Shown: positions 10,007 through 44,953 of the stretch, one piece after another
Position numbering within the stretch: position 1 is the stretch's first letter
Layout: each line of letters opens with the position of its first letter
Origin: Longimicrobiales bacterium
Lineage (GTDB): Bacteria; Gemmatimonadota; Gemmatimonadetes; Longimicrobiales; Gaopeijiaceae
Assembly (NCBI GenBank): GCA_965226375.1
Contig: CBDDCX010000005.1
Location: 160,001 to 224,000 of the forward strand
DNA length: 64,000 nucleotides
Direction: 5' to 3'
Made by a program: the position numbers and the translations under genes
Notes under the pieces: model-generated
Database searches by the model: none
The model's input: only the letters and a program-made list of their open reading frames with translations
What the model was told of the DNA's origin: nothing

Positions 10007-10864
10007 ATGGCCGAGGAGAGAGGCACGAGCCTGACCCGGCGGGAGTTTGAGGCCGTGATCAAGCGCGCATCTGAGCTCTCTACATCGGACCCTGAGGGTG
10101 CCGAGGGCGCTCTCGACGAAGGAGAGCTGTTCCGAATCGCTCGTGAGGTGGGGCTTTCGGACGCCCATGTACAGCGGGCGCTCACCGAGCTACGCACCGC
10201 CGATGATCCGGAAGGTCTGGTCGCTCGTTGGTTTGGATCCGTGACGGTGCGGGTTTCGAGGGTGGTGCCGGGCGACAGGGAGCGCCTTCGGGTCATCATG
10301 GACGAATTCCTCGTGGCGGGGCACTTGCTTCAGCCTGTGCGCCAGGGATCGGACATTCTCCTCTATCGGCCGGCCGTGGACTGGATCTCGAACTTTGCGC
10401 GGGCTGGCGCCTCCATGTCACAGACGGTGTACTGGGCCTCGGCCAAGGAGATCGAGGTTCGACTCACGGAAGTCTACGAAGACACCACACTGGTGGAGAT
10501 CCACGTGGACCCGGGTGTCCGGTCCGACTACACGGCCGGTGCCGTCCTGGGTGGGCTGGCGGCGGGTGGAGGAGTGAGTTTCGGTGTGGCAGCTTTTCTT
10601 GGTGCGGCTCTCGCGGTCCCGATGGTGGGTGCGTGGTCTCTCGGCATCGGTGTGGGTGCGGCAGTGGCGCTCGGAGTGGTCCGTGTCACGGGTCACTACT
10701 CGCGGAAACGTCGAGAGGAAGTCCAGCAGGAGTTGGAGGGGATCCTCGATCGGTTGGAGCGCGGCGATGACCTCTCACCTCCTCCCGCGTCGTGGCGGAG
10801 GTGGGTGACGCGTCAAGCCAGGCGGTTCAAGCTCGAGTTGTCTGGGGATGACGTAGATTTCTAA
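10007..10864 (+). CDS. Hypothetical membrane protein
   Basis: In operon; two C-terminal hydrophobic helices. Confidence 0.75.
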   Translation: MAEERGTSLTRREFEAVIKRASELSTSDPEGAEGALDEGELFRIAREVGLSDAHVQRALTELRTADDPEGLVARWFGSVTVRVSRVVPGDRERLRVIMDEFLVAGHLLQPVRQGSDILLYRPAVDWISNFARAGASMSQTVYWASAKEIEVRLTEVYEDTTLVEIHVDPGVRSDYTAGAVLGGLAAGGGVSFGVAAFLGAALAVPMVGAWSLGIGVGAAVALGVVRVTGHYSRKRREEVQQELEGILDRLERGDDLSPPPASWRRWVTRQARRFKLELSGDDVDF

Positions 10865-11870: not shown

Positions 11871-12662
11871 ATGATCCTCGCTGCCGTCAACGATCCGTTT
11901 CTGCTCCATTCCGTCCGGAGGGCTGCTCTGCCCGCTGAGGACGTGTTCTCTGCTGTAGAGGATGTATCGGCGGCACTCGAGTTGGGCTTCCCGAGAATGT
12001 GTGTCGTCGAGCGGGGTGCGGGCGGAGCGGTGGAGCGGCTCCTCCAGGCCAGAGGCTCCAACCTTCCCGTGCTGGAGGTGGCGCCCCTCGATCTGCCCGG
12101 ACTGCGTCGCTCGGCGTCGGCCATTGCAATTCAGCGTATCGATATGGCTCCGGCCAGGATGCGCCAACTGATCGACGAAGCGGCGCTTCCCGTGACCTGG
12201 GTGGAGGGCCTCCTGCGTGATCTGGGCCGGACGGCGGGACATTCCCTCCCACCCGCACTGAGCGCGCTCGGGCGCAGGACCCTGGAGTTCCCCTCGAGGT
12301 ACGCCCGCCTCGAAGACGTATCCGAGGCGATCGGACTCACGCCGGGAGCGCTCAAGGCGCGTTTCCGACGTCGGGACTTGCCGTCGCCGTTCGCATATAC
12401 GACCCGTCTCCGGGCGCTCTGCGCCAGCGAACTACTGACCCGACACGGCATGACGACGGCCAGGGTGGCGTTCCACCTGGGATACTCCAGCAACGGCAAT
12501 CTTTGTCGCGCGTTCCGCTCGCTGACGGGCCTCACTCTGTCGGAGGCCTCGACCCTGGAGGGACGTTTACACGTTCTGACTCGCATCAGTCGCGAGCTAT
12601 TGACGCCGGCTTATCTGAACCGGTGGGCTGCGTTGGATCCGCTCTGGGTGAGGGCGGCGTAG
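11871..12662 (+). CDS. AraC-family HTH transcriptional regulator
   Basis: C-terminal VAFHLGYSSNGNLCRAFRSLTGLT signature. Confidence 0.8.
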   Translation: MILAAVNDPFLLHSVRRAALPAEDVFSAVEDVSAALELGFPRMCVVERGAGGAVERLLQARGSNLPVLEVAPLDLPGLRRSASAIAIQRIDMAPARMRQLIDEAALPVTWVEGLLRDLGRTAGHSLPPALSALGRRTLEFPSRYARLEDVSEAIGLTPGALKARFRRRDLPSPFAYTTRLRALCASELLTRHGMTTARVAFHLGYSSNGNLCRAFRSLTGLTLSEASTLEGRLHVLTRISRELLTPAYLNRWAALDPLWVRAA

Positions 12663-12764: not shown

Positions 12765-12959
12765 CTACCGCTTACCGCGTCGCTGACGCCGTCGCTCTCG
12801 CCGGATGGCGGCTTCACGCTTCCGCTTCCGCTGGGCGCTGGGCTTCTCGTAGAAGCGACGCTTACGAAGCTCCGAATAGAGTCCCGATCGCTGCACTTTA
12901 CGTTTGAACCGTCGGAGCGCTCGCTCGAGGCTCTCGTTGTCCTGAATGGTTACTTCCAA
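12765..12959 (-). CDS. rpsU: 30S ribosomal protein S21
   Basis: [18 protein letters not shown]...[11 protein letters not shown] start after AGGAG. Confidence 0.95.
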
Positions 12960-13024
12960 GAGAGGTTCTCTCCTCTGGTAAATCTCCAAAGCCAAGAGCC
13001 AAAAAAATAGTGGAGCCGGACCGA

Positions 13025-13751
13025 TCAGGGAAGCCTTCCCTCACGATGGAGGGTATGGGCGTAGAGGAGGTACTCTTCTCGGTGGGCCAGGAAGTCGGCC
13101 GTCCAGACCTCGAAAGGCGGCATGGGTATGCGCATCTCGAGGTACTCCACCACCATCATGGCGAGCTGTAGGCGGTCCTTTGCCCCAAAGTCGACCGCCT
13201 GCCCTTCCAGAATGCTATCTACCGCCGCCTCGAAGTCGTCGGGCCTGAGAAGCGCGATGAAATGGCAGACCTGGTCCAGTCGGTAGGAGGCGTAGAGAGA
13301 CCGTAGTTCCGCCATGTTGGCCTGGCTGGACGGATCGTCGAGACAGCCTCCCGCGGCAGCCGCCATCTCCCGGGAGTTCTCAGAGAGGAGGTTCCGGAAC
13401 CACTTGCGCAGCTTGGGAGATGCTACTTCGTCCCTTTGTTGGGCATGAAGAGCAGAGGAGAACAACGCTCTCAGGAGGGGTCGACCGAGCCCTCTCGCCT
13501 TTTGGTCGATATCCGCCTCGGATGCCTCGATGAAGATATCTGCCGTCCGGACCTCGTCCACCTCGCCTTCACTGTCTCGGGGCCGGAAAGAAAGGTGGCC
13601 GTGCCACTGGTTGTCACGGCCTTGGAAGGTGATGAGGAAGCACGTCACGGCCTTGGAAGGTGATGAGGAAGCACGCCCACTTCTCGCCGTCCGACTCGAG
13701 AAACCCGAGAGAACGTTGGCGAGCGCGATCGATGAGGGCGTGTTCAGCCAA
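13025..13751 (-). pseudogene. Uncharacterised two-domain protein (order B-A), frameshifted by a 31-bp tandem duplication
   Basis: 727 nt minus 31 = 696 nt in frame, giving (M)AEHALIDRARQRSLGFLESDGEKWACFLITFQGRDNQWHGHLSF...MPPFEVWTADF; paralogous to 15197 and 16593. Confidence 0.75.
13613..13674. repeat. Exact 31-bp tandem duplication
   Basis: GTCACGGCCTTGGAAGGTGATGAGGAAGCAC x2. Confidence 0.95.
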
Positions 13752-13894
13752 GTCTTCAGTGGGACGAGGTGCTCAGGAGGCCATGGAGATTGCCGCGCAG
13801 CGGTGCACACCATGATCAACGTCCAAGATGTCCGCACATGTCTGCAGGGGCAAGGAAGACGAGTGCTGAGTTCGGAACGCCAGCGAGAAACGTC

Positions 13895-13924
13895 TTGCCA
13901 GAATGGTAAACATATTGTTATCGT
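13895..13924 (+). promoter_or_regulatory. Putative sigma70 promoter
   Basis: TTGCCA-N18-TATCGT with an extended -10 (TGn). Confidence 0.5.
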
Positions 13925-13930
13925 GAGACT

Positions 13931-14025
13931 CACGGGGCATGAAAAACCCTGAAAGACCGCATCCCACGGCCAATGATGGCTGTTGGGAGCGCAGACGAGG
14001 CCCGGCGAGAATGCCGGGCTTTTTT
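13931..14025 (+). ncRNA. Candidate ~95-nt small RNA
   Basis: Upstream promoter, internal hairpin TCCCACGGCCA-ATGA-TGGCTGTTGGGA, and terminator GGCCCGGC-GAGAAT-GCCGGGCT followed by a T run. Confidence 0.45.
13999..14025 (+). terminator. Rho-independent terminator
   Basis: GC-rich stem followed by T6. Confidence 0.75.
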
Positions 14026-14071
14026 GCCCGGTCAGCCACGGTGTGGCGCCGGTCGGGCGAGACATACCCAT

Positions 14072-14110
14072 AAAAAAAGTGAGAGTCCCGGCTGGCACCG
14101 AGACTCTCGC
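14072..14110 (-). terminator. Rho-independent terminator (minus strand)
   Basis: GAGAGTCTCGG-TGCCAG-CCGGGACTCTC followed by ACTTTTTTT. Confidence 0.75.
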
Positions 14111-14148
14111 TGGAAGACACGGGTGGCGACCCGCTTTTCCTCGTTCGC
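14072..14148 (-). ncRNA. Candidate ~75-nt small RNA
   Basis: Lies between a TTGACA promoter (14155-14184) and the minus-strand terminator; internal hairpin CGGGT-CGCC-ACCCG. Confidence 0.45.
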
Positions 14149-14154
14149 AAAGGA

Positions 14155-14184
14155 AAAGTAAGAGAATCGCCGAACGAGTGTCAA
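14155..14184 (-). promoter_or_regulatory. Putative sigma70 promoter
   Basis: Minus strand TTGACA-N18-TACTTT. Confidence 0.5.
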
Positions 14185-14269
14185 GGGTGTTGTACGCCTG
14201 GGACTCGCGGAATCGCCCCCGTTGGCCGGCCCGCCGGCAGTGGGGGCGTTTTACGCTAGAGGAGACACG

Positions 14270-15181
14270 ATGAACGCGACGACTCTTTCTTTTCAGTCTG
14301 AGGCGCGGCCGGAGGCGATGGCCGATGTGCCCGGAATCTGTGAGCTTCCGCTCACGCGAGCAGTGGTCCAGTACCGAGACCTGCACGAGATTGATCTTCC
14401 TGGTGGCAGGATTCAGGACATCGGGCTTGCGTTGGTGCTCGAAGGGCGCTTTGCGTCTTCGGCAGAGGTGCTCGATCTGGGGAGTTCGACGGTCAAAATG
14501 CTCGATCTCAGTTCGGAATTGGTCGTGCTGGACTGGGTGTACGAGCCGACCTTGGAGCATGTGAACGGGCTCATCAGGGAGCGTGCCGTCGGCGAGACCG
14601 ACGAGCACGGTGGTCGACTGAGCACCTACTGCTTCCAAATGGCGTTGAGCCTGCTGGGTCGTGTGGGATATGGTGCGCTGACCCGGCCCTCCATCCTCAG
14701 AATCGGCTTTCGTGACATCTGCCGAGACCTGGACTTCCACGAAGGCACCTCCGTGCGCATCGTCGCGGGAGAGCACCGGATCACGCGGGCCTACCTGGAC
14801 TACGACGCCAACTCGCTGATCTTCCGTGCCCCCTCCCCAGAGCCGGACGCGATCTTGGAAGCCGCGGTTCTCGAAGCGTTTCCCCACAGCGAAGTGTTGC
14901 GAGTCACCGAAGCCCACGAAGGCGGTTCGGTGCAGTATCAGGTGCGCCTCAACCTTCCGGTGACCTTGGCCGAGGCTCGTGAAGAGCTCCAGACCATCCG
15001 GCGGGGCCTGGGCCGGCTTCTGGCCCGCTTTGAACCTGGCCGCTTCGAGGCTGTCGAACACCACCTGTCCACGTTCGGCTCTCGTGAGACCCTGGCCCGT
15101 CTTTCCATTCGCGAGCGTCGTGTGAAGTCGGTCCCACTTCGTACCCACGCCGCCACGGTCGGTGGCGGGACCGTGCACTAG
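14270..15181 (+). CDS. Hypothetical protein (303 aa)
   Basis: GAGGAG RBS before ATG; globular-looking sequence with no recognised motif. Confidence 0.8.
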   Translation: MNATTLSFQSEARPEAMADVPGICELPLTRAVVQYRDLHEIDLPGGRIQDIGLALVLEGRFASSAEVLDLGSSTVKMLDLSSELVVLDWVYEPTLEHVNGLIRERAVGETDEHGGRLSTYCFQMALSLLGRVGYGALTRPSILRIGFRDICRDLDFHEGTSVRIVAGEHRITRAYLDYDANSLIFRAPSPEPDAILEAAVLEAFPHSEVLRVTEAHEGGSVQYQVRLNLPVTLAEAREELQTIRRGLGRLLARFEPGRFEAVEHHLSTFGSRETLARLSIRERRVKSVPLRTHAATVGGGTVH

Positions 15182-15196
15182 GTCCTCCGCGTACCC

Positions 15197-15796
15197 ATGG
15201 CGATGCAACTCGACGGAGTTCGAGGGGTCAGACCCCGTCTCCATGCGGGTCCTGGGGGACCGCGGACAGGCACGGCGTTGAGGCGGCAGTACCGGGAGTA
15301 CTGTCGGTGGCAGGCCGCCGGTCTTGTCGAGTTGGTGCCGGCCGAGGGTGTGCGCCCGCTATATCGACAGGCCCGGGAGTGGGCGATGAGCCGCGGGGTA
15401 CACGAGTCGAAGGATCCGATGGCTACTCTCCATCATTTTTGCCGCGAGCTTCTGCCGTTGCCGTCGTTCGACGTCTGGTTGGCGGACTACGAAAGCCATC
15501 GTCTCGCGCATCTCAAGGCGGGTCTGCCCTATCCACCTTCCGGTGAACCCTCGGAGCCCGTTACGGTGGAGCTCAGAAAAGTGGAGCACGCGTCGGATTG
15601 CTGGCAGGCTTCCCTCGACGTCTATCGAGACGGCAACGTCTGGCGAGGATACATTCGCTTCCATCGGGGTTCCGCCGAGGCACACGTACGTACGGGCGAC
15701 ATCTTCTGCGAGGAGGAGCTCCAGGACCTCCGCGACCGCTTTCTTTCCTTCACGTCGGCCACGCTGGCGGCCTTCCTCCGGTCGATTCTTCCGTAG
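15197..15796 (+). CDS. Uncharacterised two-domain protein (order A-B)
   Basis: LRRQYREYCRWQ...LPSFDVWLADY followed by WQASL...WRGYIRF...VRTGDIFCE. Confidence 0.8.
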   Translation: MAMQLDGVRGVRPRLHAGPGGPRTGTALRRQYREYCRWQAAGLVELVPAEGVRPLYRQAREWAMSRGVHESKDPMATLHHFCRELLPLPSFDVWLADYESHRLAHLKAGLPYPPSGEPSEPVTVELRKVEHASDCWQASLDVYRDGNVWRGYIRFHRGSAEAHVRTGDIFCEEELQDLRDRFLSFTSATLAAFLRSILP

Positions 15797-15797
15797 C

Positions 15798-15817
15798 TCA
15801 TTTTTTGCAAAAAATGA
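15798..15817. promoter_or_regulatory. Perfect 20-bp AT-rich palindrome (candidate operator)
   Basis: TCATTTTTTGCAAAAAATGA. Confidence 0.5.
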
Positions 15818-16021
15818 ACCGGCATCCAGACACCGATTCTCGGTGACCTCAACTCCGTAAGTGCCCATCGTTGCTGGTTTTCTAAACGGGAGAATCAAGA
15901 AACAGCGGTGTCGTGGATCAGTGAGGAACAGTTGGTTTCGTCCCAAAAGCCATATTCATAAGTCATTGTAACACAATGGGTTACAAGATCTAGTTGGGCA
16001 CACGACAATTTTAGAAAAGGC

Positions 16022-16050
16022 TTGCGTCCCTGGAAAGTGACCTGTATACT
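16022..16050 (+). promoter_or_regulatory. Sigma70 promoter
   Basis: TTGCGT-N17-TATACT. Confidence 0.65.
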
Positions 16051-16169
16051 GGAGTCGCCTCAAGAAAATAATTCGTCCTTCCGGACGACGTTTGGTTTGC
16101 GCTGGGATCATCCGATTCCAGCTAACATTCCAAGAAATTTCAACTACAAACCAGGGGAGAGGTGTGCGT

Positions 16170-16373
16170 ATGTGGGAGACCTGCTCCGTTCAGCTCAACG
16201 TCCAACTTCCTCGCGATATCGCGGAGCAGGCTGAAGAAGTTCAAAAGACGGATCCGGAGTTTCTGAGCCGGGTCGTGCTATATGGACTCACCCGCCGGTC
16301 GATCTATCGTCACCTGCGCGAACGGGGCCAGGGTCAGGACAGCGGAGACGCACAGACGCAACTGGCGACCTGA
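16170..16373 (+). CDS. Small protein, possibly ribbon-helix-helix DNA-binding
   Basis: GGAGAGGT RBS; alternating VQLNVQLP strand followed by two helices. Confidence 0.65.
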   Translation: MWETCSVQLNVQLPRDIAEQAEEVQKTDPEFLSRVVLYGLTRRSIYRHLRERGQGQDSGDAQTQLAT

Positions 16374-16592
16374 GGAACCTCACTTGCCGTAGCTCCGCTA
16401 CGGACCCCTCTCGGTGCCTCTCCTTGAGTACTCGCGAACCCTGGCGAGAGCCCACCGATTCGAACCGACTCCCCGCCCGGACTTGACTCTCCCGGGGTAC
16501 CCCTACTAATACGTAACCACAAGACGGGCCTGCATTTGCGCGCCGAATGACGGTACGCATGGCGAGCCTGAGAGTCATTCGGGAGGCCGGGC

Positions 16593-16943
16593 GTGAGTGA
16601 CGCCGATCCCAAGACCCCCCCTCACGGACAAAAAAGCGAGACTGACTTGGTCTTGCGGTCGAAGTATCTGGAGTACTGTTCGGCACAGGTAGCCGAGCAT
16701 CTTCTGTTGCTGTCACCCGACGAGATCTATCTGCTCGCCGAAGAAGCCCATCGCTTGGCTGGAGGCCAGGGCGAACCCACGTACGAGCGTATGGTCCATC
16801 TGGCTACATCAGGCGTCTCGCGCCGTCTGGCGTTGCCGCCTTTTGATGCCTGGGCGGAGGACTATGCTCGCAACCCGGCACAGTACGAGGCTCAATTCCT
16901 GGGGCTTTGGGAGAGCGAGCTGAGAGAGGCGCTCGACTCATGA
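16593..16943 (+). CDS. Uncharacterised single-domain protein (domain A only)
   Basis: GGAGG RBS before GTG; LRSKYLEYCSAQ...LPPFDAWAEDY. Confidence 0.8.
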   Translation: MSDADPKTPPHGQKSETDLVLRSKYLEYCSAQVAEHLLLLSPDEIYLLAEEAHRLAGGQGEPTYERMVHLATSGVSRRLALPPFDAWAEDYARNPAQYEAQFLGLWESELREALDS

Positions 16944-16990: not shown

Positions 16991-17425
16991 CTAGAACGGC
17001 AAGTCGTCGTCCGGCTCCGCGATCGGGGCGGATGGCGACTGGCTCGGCGCCGGCGCTCCTCCTCCAAACCCACCACCACCATCACCGCCGCCGCCGGTGG
17101 ACCCCAGCATCACCATCTCGGAAACTACGATGTCGGTCCAATATCGCGTTTGGCCGTCCTTTTCCGTCTGCGAGTACTCGACGCGGCCCTCGGCGTAGAG
17201 GCGATCACCCTTCTTCACCCACTGCTCTACGATATCGACGAGCCGACCGAAGAAGGTGAGCCGGTGCCACTCGGTTTTTTCCTGCTGCTGTCCCGAGCCG
17301 TCTTTCCACTGCCGATTGGTGGCCAGCGACAACTTCGCGACGCGACTACCCGACGAGGTGGCGCGAATCTCAGGTTCGCTTCCGACGTTACCGATGAGCA
17401 TGACCTTGTTGAGGGACCGGCTCAT
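16991..17425 (-). CDS. ssb: Single-stranded DNA-binding protein
   Basis: SLNKVMLIGN...EKTEWHR...DDDLPF. Confidence 0.97.
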   Translation of the reverse strand: MSRSLNKVMLIGNVGSEPEIRATSSGSRVAKLSLATNRQWKDGSGQQQEKTEWHRLTFFGRLVDIVEQWVKKGDRLYAEGRVEYSQTEKDGQTRYWTDIVVSEMVMLGSTGGGGDGGGGFGGGAPAPSQSPSAPIAEPDDDLPF

Positions 17426-18519: not shown

Positions 18520-19644
18520 TTGTACCTGAGCCTGCTCAAGCTCCGGTTCTTTCGCAACCTAGGGCACCAGGAGCTCTCCTTTCCTCCGGAGGGGGTGGCG
18601 ATCGTCGGCCCTAATGCTCAAGGGAAGTCCAACCTGCTCGAAGCGATCTATTATCTGGAGACGTTCAGGTCGTTCCGAGGAGCCCGCGCCGAGCAGCTGA
18701 TCGCCTTCGGAGAAGACGTGTTTCGGGTGTCGGCGTGTGTGGGCTCGCCGGACGAAGCCGAGGTCCGGGGCACGGAAGTGGCCGCGGCGTATGAGGCGTC
18801 GAGTGGTCGTCGCAAGGTGACGGTCGACGGATCGGAGCCGCCTCGGATCGGAGACGCCGTCGGACTACTAGGGGCCGTGATCTGTTCGCCGGCGGACGTC
18901 GCGATCATCAATGAGGGGCCGTCGAGCCGTCGAAGGTTCTTGGACATCGTCCTTTCCTTGAACTGCGCCGGCTACCTGACCGCGCTACAGGAGTACAAGC
19001 ACGTTCTGGCTCAGAGAAACGCGGCCCTCAGGGGTGATCAGCCGGCGTCTGTGATCCGAGCCTGGGACGAGCCGTTGGCCGGAAGCGGCGCTTCCGTGAT
19101 GTTAGGGCGCTCCCGTTGGGTAGAGGAGTGGCGAGAGACGTTTCGGAGCCACTATGAGGTCGTGAGCGGGGGACCGTCGGCGTCTATGGACTACGTGCCG
19201 AATGTCTCTGTTGGAGTCTGGGACGAAGAAGGTGTCCTCGAAGCGTATCGCGAGGCATTGGAGGCCACGTGGTCGCGGGACGTCCGCTTCCGGAGTACCG
19301 GGATCGGACCCCATCGTGACGAGTTGCTGCTGAGCCTGACGGGTGATGCGCAACCCACCGAGATGCGGGAGTGCGGTTCGGGGGGGCAGCGGCGGACCGC
19401 CGCGTTGGCCCTCCGCTTGGTGGAGGGTGACTGCATCCGTCGCACGCGGGGCACGGAGCCGATCCTCCTGTTGGACGATGCGTTCGCGGAGCTCGATGAA
19501 GCGCGGCGCGAGCGGGTGGTTGGACTGATGAACAGTGGGCGCTTCGGACAGGTCATCCTCACGGCGCCGAAAGAGAGCGACCTGCCCCTCCAGGGAGACG
19601 GACTTCCTCGATGGGGCATCAAAGATGGGCGGATTTGCGCGTGA
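18520..19644 (+). CDS. recF: DNA replication and repair protein RecF
   Basis: GPNAQGKSN, RRRFLD, GPHRDEL, SGGQRR and LLLDDAFAELD motifs. Confidence 0.95.
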   Translation: MYLSLLKLRFFRNLGHQELSFPPEGVAIVGPNAQGKSNLLEAIYYLETFRSFRGARAEQLIAFGEDVFRVSACVGSPDEAEVRGTEVAAAYEASSGRRKVTVDGSEPPRIGDAVGLLGAVICSPADVAIINEGPSSRRRFLDIVLSLNCAGYLTALQEYKHVLAQRNAALRGDQPASVIRAWDEPLAGSGASVMLGRSRWVEEWRETFRSHYEVVSGGPSASMDYVPNVSVGVWDEEGVLEAYREALEATWSRDVRFRSTGIGPHRDELLLSLTGDAQPTEMRECGSGGQRRTAALALRLVEGDCIRRTRGTEPILLLDDAFAELDEARRERVVGLMNSGRFGQVILTAPKESDLPLQGDGLPRWGIKDGRICA

Positions 19645-19952
19645 GCGGGGGCGGGCCGACCCGGGTCGGGGCTTTGCTCGACGACGTGCTGAAGCGGCGG
19701 GGTGTCGGGACCCAGATCCGGCGCGTCGGCGCGCTGGATGCGTGGGCGCAAGCGGTAGGCGAGAAGATCGCTGCTGTGACTCACGCCAAGGCGGTCGTCG
19801 CGACGACGCTATTCGTGGAGGTGAAGAGCAGTGCTTGGCTCATGGAGCTGGACTTCATGAAGGGGGCTCTGCTGGAGCACGTGAATGAACAGCTGGAAAG
19901 AGACGGGGCGATCGAGAGGATCGTTCTTACGTTGATGGAGGGGGACGGGTAA
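19641..19952 (+). CDS. DUF721/DciA-family protein
   Basis: W..AVGEKIA...LFVEVKSSAWLMEL; position between recF and gyrB. Confidence 0.85.
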   Translation: MSGGGPTRVGALLDDVLKRRGVGTQIRRVGALDAWAQAVGEKIAAVTHAKAVVATTLFVEVKSSAWLMELDFMKGALLEHVNEQLERDGAIERIVLTLMEGDG

Positions 19953-20008
19953 GGACTCCCGTGCCGAAGGCGGGCACCCCCCGACACCCACAACCGAGCG
20001 AGCGGTAG

Positions 20009-21952
<1,944 letters not shown>

Positions 21953-42652: not shown

Positions 42653-42979
42653 TCCCTCCGGAAGCAGCGTCGACCCCGCTGCTTCACGGAGCTCACTTCA
42701 GTCTGTCGCGAACCTCCGGGCGATCTCGTCGAGACGTTCTTGGATGTAGCCGTCAGAGAACCAGCGGCCCCGCACCATCACCCCTGCCCGGTCGGCTACG
42801 TTGCCGACATCGTCCAGTGGATTGGAGTTCAGGAGGATCAAGTCGGCCCTCCGGCCCACCGCCACAGTGCCGAACGTGTCGCTCCTCCTGAAGTACTCAC
42901 CCACGGCTCGTGTGCCCGCGACGAGGATCTCGTACGGTGACATGCCGGCTTCGGCCATGGCCTGCATTTCCCTATGCAA

Positions 42980-43566
42980 GCTCGTTCAGCCGCAGCACGC
43001 GAATCCGGCCGCTGTGGCTCCGGTCCCCACGCGGGTGCTTTCCGCGCCGTACGGGGGCCAGCAGCCCATTCTCCCGCATCAGCCGCAGCACGCGGTTCTT
43101 GCCCACACCGATCCCCTTGGCTCTCAGACGGGCCCGGACCTTCCGGTGGCCTTCGCCCAGGAAGTCGCTCTCCTTCAGCACCTGTCGGATCTCCTCCACC
43201 AACTCCTCGTCGCTCAGCTTCGTCTTCGGTCCGCGCTTCTTCAGCCCTGCCGGCCCGTCGCTCTCTTCTCGATCTCGGCGTAGACCGTCGAGCGCCCCAC
43301 CCGCCAACCTCGCAGATCATCGTCAGAGGGTAGAGCCGCCCTGTCCCCGGACTCACCCGCGTCCGCGCTTCAAGAGCTTCTCCAGCTCGTCCCCGTACCC
43401 CCTTTTTTCCAGGAGTTCTCTCGCAAGCTCCAGTCGCATCGTCAACTCTCCCAGCTTCGCCCGGGTCCGGGTCAGCTCCCGTTCTCCAGGGTCTCGGCCC
43501 CGGCGTCTCAGTCCCTGCTGACCGGTCTCCAGGAACACCCGCCGCCATTCCTCCAGCTCCGGCGGT
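42980..43566 (-). mobile_element. IS3-family transposase fragment (orfA end plus orfB start, frameshifted, no ends)
   Basis: ELEEWRRVFLE...KLGELTMRLEL and LSDEELVEEIR...GEGHRKVRARLR...GKNRVLRLMRENGL. Confidence 0.8.
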
Positions 43567-43854
43567 CGAGCCTGTTGGCTGCCCAACCGCTCGGGTCCGC
43601 GGCTGCCGGATTCGCCTGCGCTCGCTGTGCTCCTCCGTCGTGTCTGCCGATCCAGCCTTCCACACCTTGCAACGAGAAGCCCGGCACCGAGAAAATCTGT
43701 GGTGAGTCCGTCCCCATCAGGATGCCCACACCGCCTTCGGACAACGCTTTGAGCACCTCGAGCCTGTTGGCTGCCCAAAGGTCCGCGGCTGCCGGATTCG
43801 CCTGCGCTCGCTGTGCTCCTCCGTCGTGTCTGCCGATCCAGCCTTCCACACCTT
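43567..43854. repeat. ~100-bp duplication of amidohydrolase sequence (43567-43668 and 43758-43854)
   Basis: TCGAGCCTGTTGGCTGCCCAA...CCTTCCACACCTT is repeated, with one A replaced by CCGCTCG. Confidence 0.9.
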
Positions 43855-43886
43855 CGACGACCCGCGGGATGTTCCGCTTGGGCCAA

Positions 43887-44953
43887 AGGGGGTATTCCCT
43901 TAAGTCCACCGACCCCAAGATATAGTGGTTACCGGGGCTCTGCGGGCCGTTTCCCACGTCCGGTGCCGAGGTAAAGGGCCGAAGCTGGCGTGGGAGCACA
44001 CTGAACAGCCTGCTCAAGCAAGCGGTAGAACAACAGGCCGCGAGCCCGGGATGTGCGTCGGTTGAAGCGAAAGGTGAACTCGTCCAGATAGTAGGGGAGG
44101 TGTTCGCGGGCGATCCCTCCTTGGAGGGTTCCGAGGACCCAGCGCTTGAGGAGAGACGCCACCCGATGTACGGCCGACATGAGCACGTGAGCGGGATCGC
44201 CGGAGGTCGAGAGGTTCGTGACCGTGTGGCGAAAGCCCAGTTTGGCGAGTCCCTGATAGCTTGGCCATCCGTCGGTATGCACCGTGCTTGCCGGTGCGAT
44301 GCTATCCTTGACGAAGCCTCGCAGAACCGGAGCGGAGAGGTCGGGCACCCAACGCAGCCGTATTCTCCCGATCTTGCGTCCGTCGACCTCGGCGGCGATC
44401 GCGACGATGGCCTTCTTGATCGTCTCGCGGCCCCGCACTCCAGCCTCCACGCCCCCGACATAGCTCTCGTCCACTTGCACAACGCCGCTCAGCTGGTCGC
44501 GATCCGGTCGGACCATGGCCCGGCGGAGCTTGTGGAGCCAGACCCACGCTGTCTTGTAGCTTCCCAGTCCGAGCACGCGCTGGAGCCCGAGAGCATTGGC
44601 TCCGTATTTCTGGCTCGTGAGCTCCCAGGCAGCGAGAAACCACAGACGCAGGGGCGAGCGCGTGCGGTGGAACACGGTTCCCGCCAGCACCGAGGTCTGC
44701 CTTCGACAGTGTGGGCAGACGAGACGCCCCCGCGATGCTCGCCAGACCTCTCCCAACCCGCCACAGCCCACGCACACAAACCCTTCCGGCCAGCGCAGAC
44801 CCTCCACGTACTCCAGGCATGCCGCATCGTCGGGGAAGAACTCGTCCAGCTCCAGCCGCGTACGGGGATAGTCCACGCCGCCACGGAGCTGAGAAGCCGG
44901 AACCGCCATGACCACAACATGTAGTGGGCGGTGGACTTAAGGCAATACCCCAT
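43887..44953 (-). mobile_element. Complete IS1595-family insertion sequence
   Basis: 25-bp terminal IRs (AGGGGGTATTCCCTTAAGTCCACCG / ATGGGGTATTGCCTTAAGTCCACCG) and an 8-bp target duplication TGGGCCAA (43879-43886, 44954-44961). Confidence 0.92.
43929..44915 (-). CDS. IS1595-family transposase
   Basis: RWPEGFVCVGC..CPHC Zn ribbon; VDESYVGG, HTDG and YLDEFTFRFNRR motifs. Confidence 0.93.
   Translation of the reverse strand: MVMAVPASQLRGGVDYPRTRLELDEFFPDDAACLEYVEGLRWPEGFVCVGCGGLGEVWRASRGRLVCPHCRRQTSVLAGTVFHRTRSPLRLWFLAAWELTSQKYGANALGLQRVLGLGSYKTAWVWLHKLRRAMVRPDRDQLSGVVQVDESYVGGVEAGVRGRETIKKAIVAIAAEVDGRKIGRIRLRWVPDLSAPVLRGFVKDSIAPASTVHTDGWPSYQGLAKLGFRHTVTNLSTSGDPAHVLMSAVHRVASLLKRWVLGTLQGGIAREHLPYYLDEFTFRFNRRTSRARGLLFYRLLEQAVQCAPTPASALYLGTGRGKRPAEPR

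Follow-up and report, generated by a model that had tools for sequence, protein, structure and literature searches.

The described systems that come closest to the locus reported here are the ribbon-helix-helix (RHH) repressors of the Arc/MetJ/CopG type (RHH_1, PF01402), the partner-switching regulators of the RsbW/RsbV/SpoIIAA type, and CsrA/RsmA, which are titrated by CsrB/RsmZ; further comparisons can be drawn with small beta-meander binding modules and with class I S-adenosylmethionine (SAM) methyltransferases. The locus lies in a 64,000-nucleotide (nt) stretch of a Longimicrobiales bacterium (assembly GCA_965226375.1, contig CBDDCX010000005.1, positions 160,001-224,000 of the forward strand; hereafter the window), where five genes stand between rpsU and ssb. 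Three are paralogues built from two domains that we call A and B, and the other two encode a conserved hypothetical protein of 303 amino acids (aa) and a 67-aa RHH-like protein, the order being B-A, 303-aa, A-B, RHH-like and A-only. The locus is a vertically inherited gene cluster of Gemmatimonadota (Longimicrobiales), and the reading that we favour, at somewhat under an even chance, is that A and B serve, without catalysis, as partner modules within a transcription-control circuit built around the small, probably DNA-binding RHH-like protein.

The likeness to RHH repressors concerns the 67-aa gene only. Its product shows the same strand-Pro-helix-helix pattern and size, a weak profile match and conserved boxes at nearby promoters, but differs in having no Pfam match, a longer and highly conserved second helix, and a fixed chromosomal partner of no known family. 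Like the partner-switching regulators, A and B are small modules reused alone and fused, with possible titration by a single-domain form; unlike them, the five proteins have no STAS, HATPase or PP2C family match, and no sigma factor was seen at the locus. A small-RNA candidate within the locus resembles CsrB/RsmZ in being short, in repeating a loop motif and in having its own predicted promoter and terminator, but its loops carry GCCA rather than GGA, it has only 2-3 motifs, and Rfam returns nothing for it at gathering score. No CsrA-like protein is present at the locus, a genome-wide CsrA search not having been made. The predicted fold of B, with 3-4 antiparallel strands packed on helices, is like that of MmoD, AcrF1, WGR, the PUR repeat and the SAS-6 head, but the Z scores of 3.8-5.6 are at background, sequence identity is at most 15%, and no homology is claimed. 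Finally, in regards to the class I SAM methyltransferases (Methyltransf_25, TehB-like), the resemblance is that of the C-terminal domain of an A fusion found in Gemmatimonadaceae-type genomes, which differs by a degenerate glycine-rich motif and was not found in the genome of the window.

An earlier note, made from the letters of the window, had described A as present in three genes and B in two and had recognized no family for either. Profile comparisons with hhalign bear out this paralogy. Specifically, the two B domains match at 98.9% probability (E 1e-17, score 87) and the A domains at 97.9-99.2% (scores of 71-100 across the A-A pairs), against maximum scores of 17-23 in 40 column-shuffled controls per pair, and the cross comparison of A with B stays at or below 3.8% probability. 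The domain order is indeed swapped between the minus-strand B-A gene and the plus-strand A-B gene. The count of two B genes is correct for the locus but not for the genome, which carries a third, stand-alone copy elsewhere (Table 1). None of the five proteins has a match in Pfam, NCBIfam, PADLOC or PHROGs, and a PDB sequence search with seven profiles gave best E values of 0.016-1, with matches to DnaA domain I, TFAM and histones treated as noise. In the ESM Atlas, stand-alone B matched unnamed Gemmatimonadota clusters only and the 303-aa protein had no usable match. Fold searches with a model of A-B likewise returned nothing significant (best Z 5.6, none >=8; lowest Foldseek E 0.2 against PDB and 0.013 against BFVD), the A part being scarcely covered. 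The nearest folds of B were MmoD, the inhibitory subunit of methane monooxygenase (Z 5.6, root-mean-square deviation 3.5, 61/64 residues aligned), then AcrF1 (Z 4.8), WGR (4.5), PUR (4.2) and AP2, with the PUR/WGR/AP2 group at Z 3.8-4.5. Occurrence in phages was judged from PHROGs and BFVD. A literature search, which covered few subscription journals and no supplements, found no description of the locus or its domains. Domains A and B look new.

The only residues kept in A across subfamilies are Tyr, Leu, Pro and Trp, and those kept in B are Gly, Phe, Thr and Ser. This subfamily comparison revealed no invariant candidate catalytic residue in either domain, and from the alignments the conserved residues are judged to be structural, not catalytic. 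The A-B structure model, built on 86 sequences (67 of 140 library matches and 18 loci entered the A-B alignment; other alignments came from 20 related loci), has a predicted local distance difference test score of 88 and a predicted template modelling (pTM) score of 0.73, with A as five helices and B as a beta-meander with two helices. This pTM exceeds the usual value for two unlinked domains of 80-90 residues, which suggests a fixed A-B packing. Mutual information with average product correction, computed on 155 A-B sequences, placed invariant columns in the top ranks, and a profile match between orphN and orphC was discarded as the product of overlapping slices. In the A tree the A-only, A-B and B-A copies each form one group, and the A domains of A-B and B-A are joined at 90/86 (not starred) in this unrooted tree. 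The corresponding B domains are not joined in the B tree, the bootstrap of which had not settled. These trees fit circular permutation of an ancestral two-domain gene and independent fusions alike.

To follow the locus across the phylum, we denote the genome of the window G000, other genomes by further G-numbers, contigs by C and loci by L, with f1 as the window's own family, f2 and f3 as families of the same order and f4-f12 as other families. We read f4 as Gemmatimonadaceae from the names of matches, and f7 is probably Palauibacterales, which one study places beside Longimicrobiales (PMC11596202). Among 301 genomes A was found in 106 and B in 174; these and the other counts from this sample are lower bounds (a broader A profile finds A in 5/5 f2 genomes). 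Tallies for B, the palindrome, the small RNA and PF01402 include 1-2 unpublished genomes each (G025, G212, G392, G393), and the conclusions are independent of them. The RHH-like gene is present in 46/48 f1 and 21/23 f7 genomes and was not found in 125 f4 or 70 f5 genomes. The A match that follows it on the same strand spans five families; the five exceptions comprise one contig end and four separated pairs, the latter all in one genus.

A second set of 80 further loci combines the RHH-like gene with A-only in 77 and with A-B in 69, and gene order is conserved in 69/80. Of the best 80 loci among 303 relatives, 78 carry Gemmatimonadota labels, one has no label and one is a 4-kb contig labelled Gammaproteobacteria. 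The lineage specificity and regulatory nature proposed in the earlier note are supported by this distribution, by the synteny of the locus and by the regulatory look of its surroundings. All five genes are under purifying selection, as measured by the ratio of nonsynonymous to synonymous substitution rates (dN/dS) between two genomes of the window's genus (G001 and G002; values in Table 1), and the RHH-like gene is the most conserved of the locus. The composition of the locus varies considerably. One genus has the RHH-like and A-only genes alone between rpsU and ssb, another has the 303-aa, A-B, RHH-like and A-only genes without B-A, two f3 loci have B-A, RHH-like and A-only, and several loci have the 303-aa gene without A-B. 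Thus A-B, B-A and the 303-aa gene have been lost separately while the RHH-like and A-only genes persist. Judged by gene content, the core of the locus is the RHH-like gene followed by A-only, and the three-paralogue state is the fullest form of a modular locus, restricted to one order, because its other members are lost separately. This comparison does not support an obligate three-paralogue system. The A-only protein had been cast as a possible competitor of the two-domain forms; it is the most widely retained member and therefore looks like part of the core, not a decoy. Nor is the 303-aa protein an orphan, since 998 clusters of homologues were found among 8000 candidates scored; its named matches are Longimicrobiales or Gemmatimonadota.

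The separate losses, together with relocations in reduced genomes and the separate grouping of every architecture in the A tree, could also mean that these are tandem paralogues that are still linked but work independently. We hold this to be improbable, as fusions occur in both orders, a box is shared between promoters and order is conserved across loci. The arrangement in which a gene of ~110 aa comes immediately after a small RHH-like gene likewise invites comparison with a domesticated type II toxin-antitoxin pair, with RHH as antitoxin and A as toxin. Such a pair is very improbable here: the genes are single copy at a fixed locus under strong purifying selection across two orders, they do not overlap but lie 219 nt apart, and A-only has no toxin-family match in Pfam, NCBIfam, PADLOC or PHROGs and no catalytic residues.

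Beyond the locus the two domains are recombined further, so that A is known in five architectures and B in three. A stand-alone B lies behind the RHH-like and A-only genes in 15/17 new f7 loci and in two earlier ones. The resulting adjacency of stand-alone A and B genes in 17/19 f7 loci, the fusions in both orders and the pTM of the A-B model support the partnership of A and B that the earlier note had imagined. Stand-alone B is also present in 101/125 f4 genomes, and in 7/9 f4/f8 loci the next gene is HisKA-like, 60 aa long, and retains a conserved His. In f4, f5 and f8, A forms the N-terminal part of a protein of ~260 aa, the remainder of which is a degenerate class I methyltransferase; this fusion accounts for 114 of the 120 long matches listed, out of 222 found. 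Its methyltransferase part matches PF13649, above cut-off in 1/8, with the degeneracy of the glycine-rich motif seen in the consensus. A truncated form of this methyltransferase-type A occurs in f2 and f3. Several observations on stand-alone B stand apart from these: its neighbours in several f1 genomes include cytochrome c, molybdopterin oxidoreductase and NrfD genes, LuxC/LuxE-like genes and a small AbrB/MazE-like gene; in f4/f8 (L054-L059, L066, L071, L072) it adjoins an M50 peptidase and rho-ruvX-mltG; and in six f4 loci an A-methyltransferase gene is located 6-10 kb away.

These associations would also fit A and B serving enzymes of signalling or metabolism as connector or inhibitor subunits, with the RHH protein regulating only their transcription. 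That the best fold neighbour of B is an inhibitory subunit of an enzyme, that a HisKA-only gene adjoins stand-alone B and that A is fused to a pseudo-methyltransferase are in line with such a role. We nevertheless consider it rather unlikely, given that all Z scores are below 8 and that the locus has no conserved kinase or enzyme target.

The regulatory DNA of the locus offers a candidate link between the RHH-like protein and its neighbours. The B-A and 303-aa genes have divergent predicted sigma70-type promoters, and the second of these shares a conserved box with the DNA ahead of the RHH-like gene. There, ~245 nt ahead of the RHH start, the box is followed by an AT-rich palindrome resembling integration host factor (IHF) half-sites, and then by a promoter, all three being conserved in 77 loci. 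This region lies within the AT-rich stretch at 15800-16099 (GC 0.45 vs ~0.62), which had been noticed before along with the 303-aa and 67-aa open reading frames (ORFs), and all three are present as described. We considered the palindrome as operator of the RHH-like protein and rejected it: the pattern is found in families lacking the RHH gene and is common in f4 (39/55) and f5 (15/28), while the reversed control occurs in 5 genomes. The palindrome is phylum-wide and therefore not RHH-specific. We also set aside a match to the box in the vicinity of the stand-alone B gene, as it lies inside a transglutaminase-like ORF.

A box similar to that at the two promoters stands ahead of one lexA paralogue in G000 which, with the fixed position of the locus beside ssb, recF, a dciA-like gene and gyrB, raises the question of whether the proteins are accessory to replication or DNA repair under SOS control. 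This too is improbable. The lexA box is found in only 3/23 upstream regions, inspection of G000 by eye, with no genome-wide scan, showed none ahead of recA or of its second lexA, and these neighbours of the locus were not detected in f7, f2, f6 and f4 loci. The locus is also not a replication origin, a possibility that we discarded since dnaA, the DnaA boxes and the skew switch are on another contig. The two LexA paralogues of G000 are located at C8:1317210-1317863 and C8:1757687; one has GTTC-type direct repeats upstream, and the other is kept in 36/41 family genomes with a highly conserved promoter.

Under the reading that we favour, a dimer of the RHH-like protein would bind the shared box, repress the 303-aa/A-B transcript from within the promoter spacer and tune its own promoter, aided by an IHF-type bend. 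A-only would act as its co-factor and in turn offer B a docking site. The two fusions, A-B and B-A, would each tether an A.B pair, would have been added within a single order of the phylum and would alter the amount of free A, and the small RNA would be a later, optional layer. Several lines of evidence point this way: the lack of an invariant catalytic residue, the fusions and adjacent A and B genes, the pTM of the A-B model, the adjacency of the RHH-like and A-only genes, the conservation of the box at two promoters, the location of B beside a HisKA-like gene and the A-methyltransferase fusion. There is also the weak match of the RHH-like profile to a profile of 27 RHH_1 members (hhalign 46.7%, E 2e-4, score 22.8), which runs from the first strand onward and compares with a maximum of 15.8 in 40 shuffles and 11.0 for the reversed profile. 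Other observations weigh against this circuit. The RHH call at that probability is weak, with an ambiguous helix-B register, and Pfam RHH families gave no match in 63 RHH-like members at E<=0.5, nor did PF01402 match anywhere in G000. Gene neighbourhood alone is no proof of a complex, and A and B are not always together, with B not found in 70 f5 or 3 f2 genomes carrying A. The box is only a putative target of the RHH-like protein; among loci with the RHH gene, those of f3, f6 and f7 show it less clearly, and the lexA box of 3/23 genomes counts here as well.

Of the two small-RNA candidates that had been proposed, both fold well (z -4.2 and -5.4), and cross-genus sequence conservation was found for the minus-strand one alone; the sequence at 13930-14026 is conserved mainly within the genus, its hairpin being present in several other loci. 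The minus-strand candidate occurs in 16 distinct genomes. Its 3' stem has changes on both sides in 9/12 pairs (covariation 0.54 vs 0.25 shuffled and <=0.24 slid), and both loops keep a near-invariant GCCA while the stems covary. Its distribution is patchy, with strong matches in 4/33 f3 genomes and none in 34 other f1 genomes sampled; weak RNA-model matches (22-32 bits) in f2 and f3 may be generic terminators. It adjoins the 303-aa gene wherever mapped, except in G374, where L174 (G374:C50:1105-1493) has two tandem copies upstream of RHH-A, without a 303-aa gene in the available stretch.

The invariant loops, the covarying stems and this adjacency would be expected if control were centred on RNA, with B or the 303-aa protein binding single-stranded RNA and the GCCA-loop RNA titrating the binder in the manner of CsrB/RsmZ; PUR, WGR and AP2 among the weak fold neighbours of B would agree. 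Such control is in our view quite unlikely, because the proteins persist where the RNA is missing, the Z scores are at background and a covarying stem could be a mere terminator. A more inclusive possibility, unlikely though not negligible, is that the class Gemmatimonadetes has an undescribed signalling code in two parts, A and B. In it A would dock on B, and the pair would be rewired by lineage to an RHH-type regulator, a pseudo-methyltransferase sensor, a lone helix pair acting as phospho-acceptor, and reciprocal A-B/B-A fusions that a GCCA-loop sponge RNA would gate.

The B-A gene is frameshifted in the assembly by a perfect 31-nt tandem duplication, and the B motif quoted for it in the earlier note does not lie in one frame, as it spans this break. 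In 19/19 relatives B-A is one ORF, and contigs of 4/4 sequencing runs from four studies skip the extra copy, with the caveat that these contigs were built from 31-letter words, so that a true 31-nt repeat could collapse. Apart from the missing copy, the contig of one run, which is possibly that of the source sample, is identical to the window around the duplication. Because the extra copy is absent from all these runs and relatives, the duplication is probably an assembly error. Isolated exact tandem duplications (e.g. 17, 23, 25, 26, 29, 31, 32 and 83 nt) also occur on several contigs of G000; these too may stem from the assembly and could interrupt further genes.

Table 1. Features of the rpsU-ssb locus and the stand-alone B paralogue (window coordinates unless a contig is given).
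Feature	Position	Strand	Remarks
rpsU (S21), left flank	12765..12995	-	Pfam PF01165, E 1e-21
B-A gene, ~231 aa, frameshifted in assembly	13025..13751	-	B ~13445-13720, A ~13040-13315; dN/dS 0.067
Perfect 31-nt tandem duplication	13613..13674	.	copies 13613-13643 / 13644-13674; frameshifts B-A gene
Predicted sigma70-type promoter of B-A	13825..13853	-	read from sequence; -10 hexamer partly conserved; missed by promoter scan
Predicted sigma70-type promoter	13895..13924	+	promoter scan; conserved box in spacer (~13908-13919), in 16/19 aligned loci, by eye
Structured leader or short RNA (candidate)	13930..14026	+	ends in terminator-like hairpin (14000-14025); z -5.4
Small-RNA candidate	14066..14150	-	two hairpins, GCCA-containing loops, U-tail; predicted own promoter 14184-14155
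303-aa conserved hypothetical protein of Longimicrobiales	14270..15181	+	36/301 genomes; dN/dS 0.049
A-B gene, 199 aa	15197..15796	+	A ~15266-15520 (helical), B ~15554-15793 (beta-meander and two helices); dN/dS 0.097
Conserved box, candidate operator	15925..15938	+	resembles box in 13895 promoter; core columns ~90% conserved in 77 loci
AT-rich palindrome	15959..15983	.	like two inverted IHF half-sites; same pattern in 69/121 genomes of phylum
Predicted sigma70-type promoter of RHH-like gene	16022..16050	+	hexamers conserved in alignments; missed by promoter scan
RHH-like protein, 67 aa, single copy	16170..16373	+	75/301 genomes; weak profile match to RHH_1 members; dN/dS 0.013
A-only gene, 116 aa	16593..16943	+	A match 114-408 nt behind RHH match in 70/75 genomes; dN/dS 0.069
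ssb, right flank	16991..17425	-	Pfam PF00436
Stand-alone B paralogue (L053)	G000:C6:597534-597845

Beyond ssb follow a crotonase-like gene, recF, the dciA-like gene and gyrB; the identities of crotonase, recF and gyrB are those we take them to have from their translations. The recF, dciA-like and gyrB genes occupy 18520-21952 without dnaA, which is on contig C7. On the other side, an AraC-family regulator (11871-12662) adjoins rpsU, is syntenic in many f1 loci and is a possible alternative binder of the box. Elsewhere in the window, a 285-aa conserved membrane-type hypothetical protein (10007-10864), with paralogues elsewhere in the genome, lies between thiolase-like and hydroxyacyl-CoA dehydrogenase-like genes, and at 42975-44909 an HTH_21 insertion-sequence fragment and an IS1595-family transposase stand among unannotated ORFs.

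In regards to method, the B-A gene illustrates that a duplication in an assembly can conceal an intact gene. The working principle that we favour would be a variant of a small regulator plus partner proteins, and the locus lends itself to testing, as it brings together a protein that may bind DNA, a putative operator found at two promoters, the three A/B proteins and a small-RNA candidate. If the two-part A/B code were true, it would add a new class to the known bacterial regulatory switches, and at least one fold would be new. The Gemmatimonadota are widespread, abundant and little studied, and the presence of A and B across much of the class Gemmatimonadetes as single-copy, recombined domains under purifying selection indicates a core lineage-specific function that annotation has overlooked.

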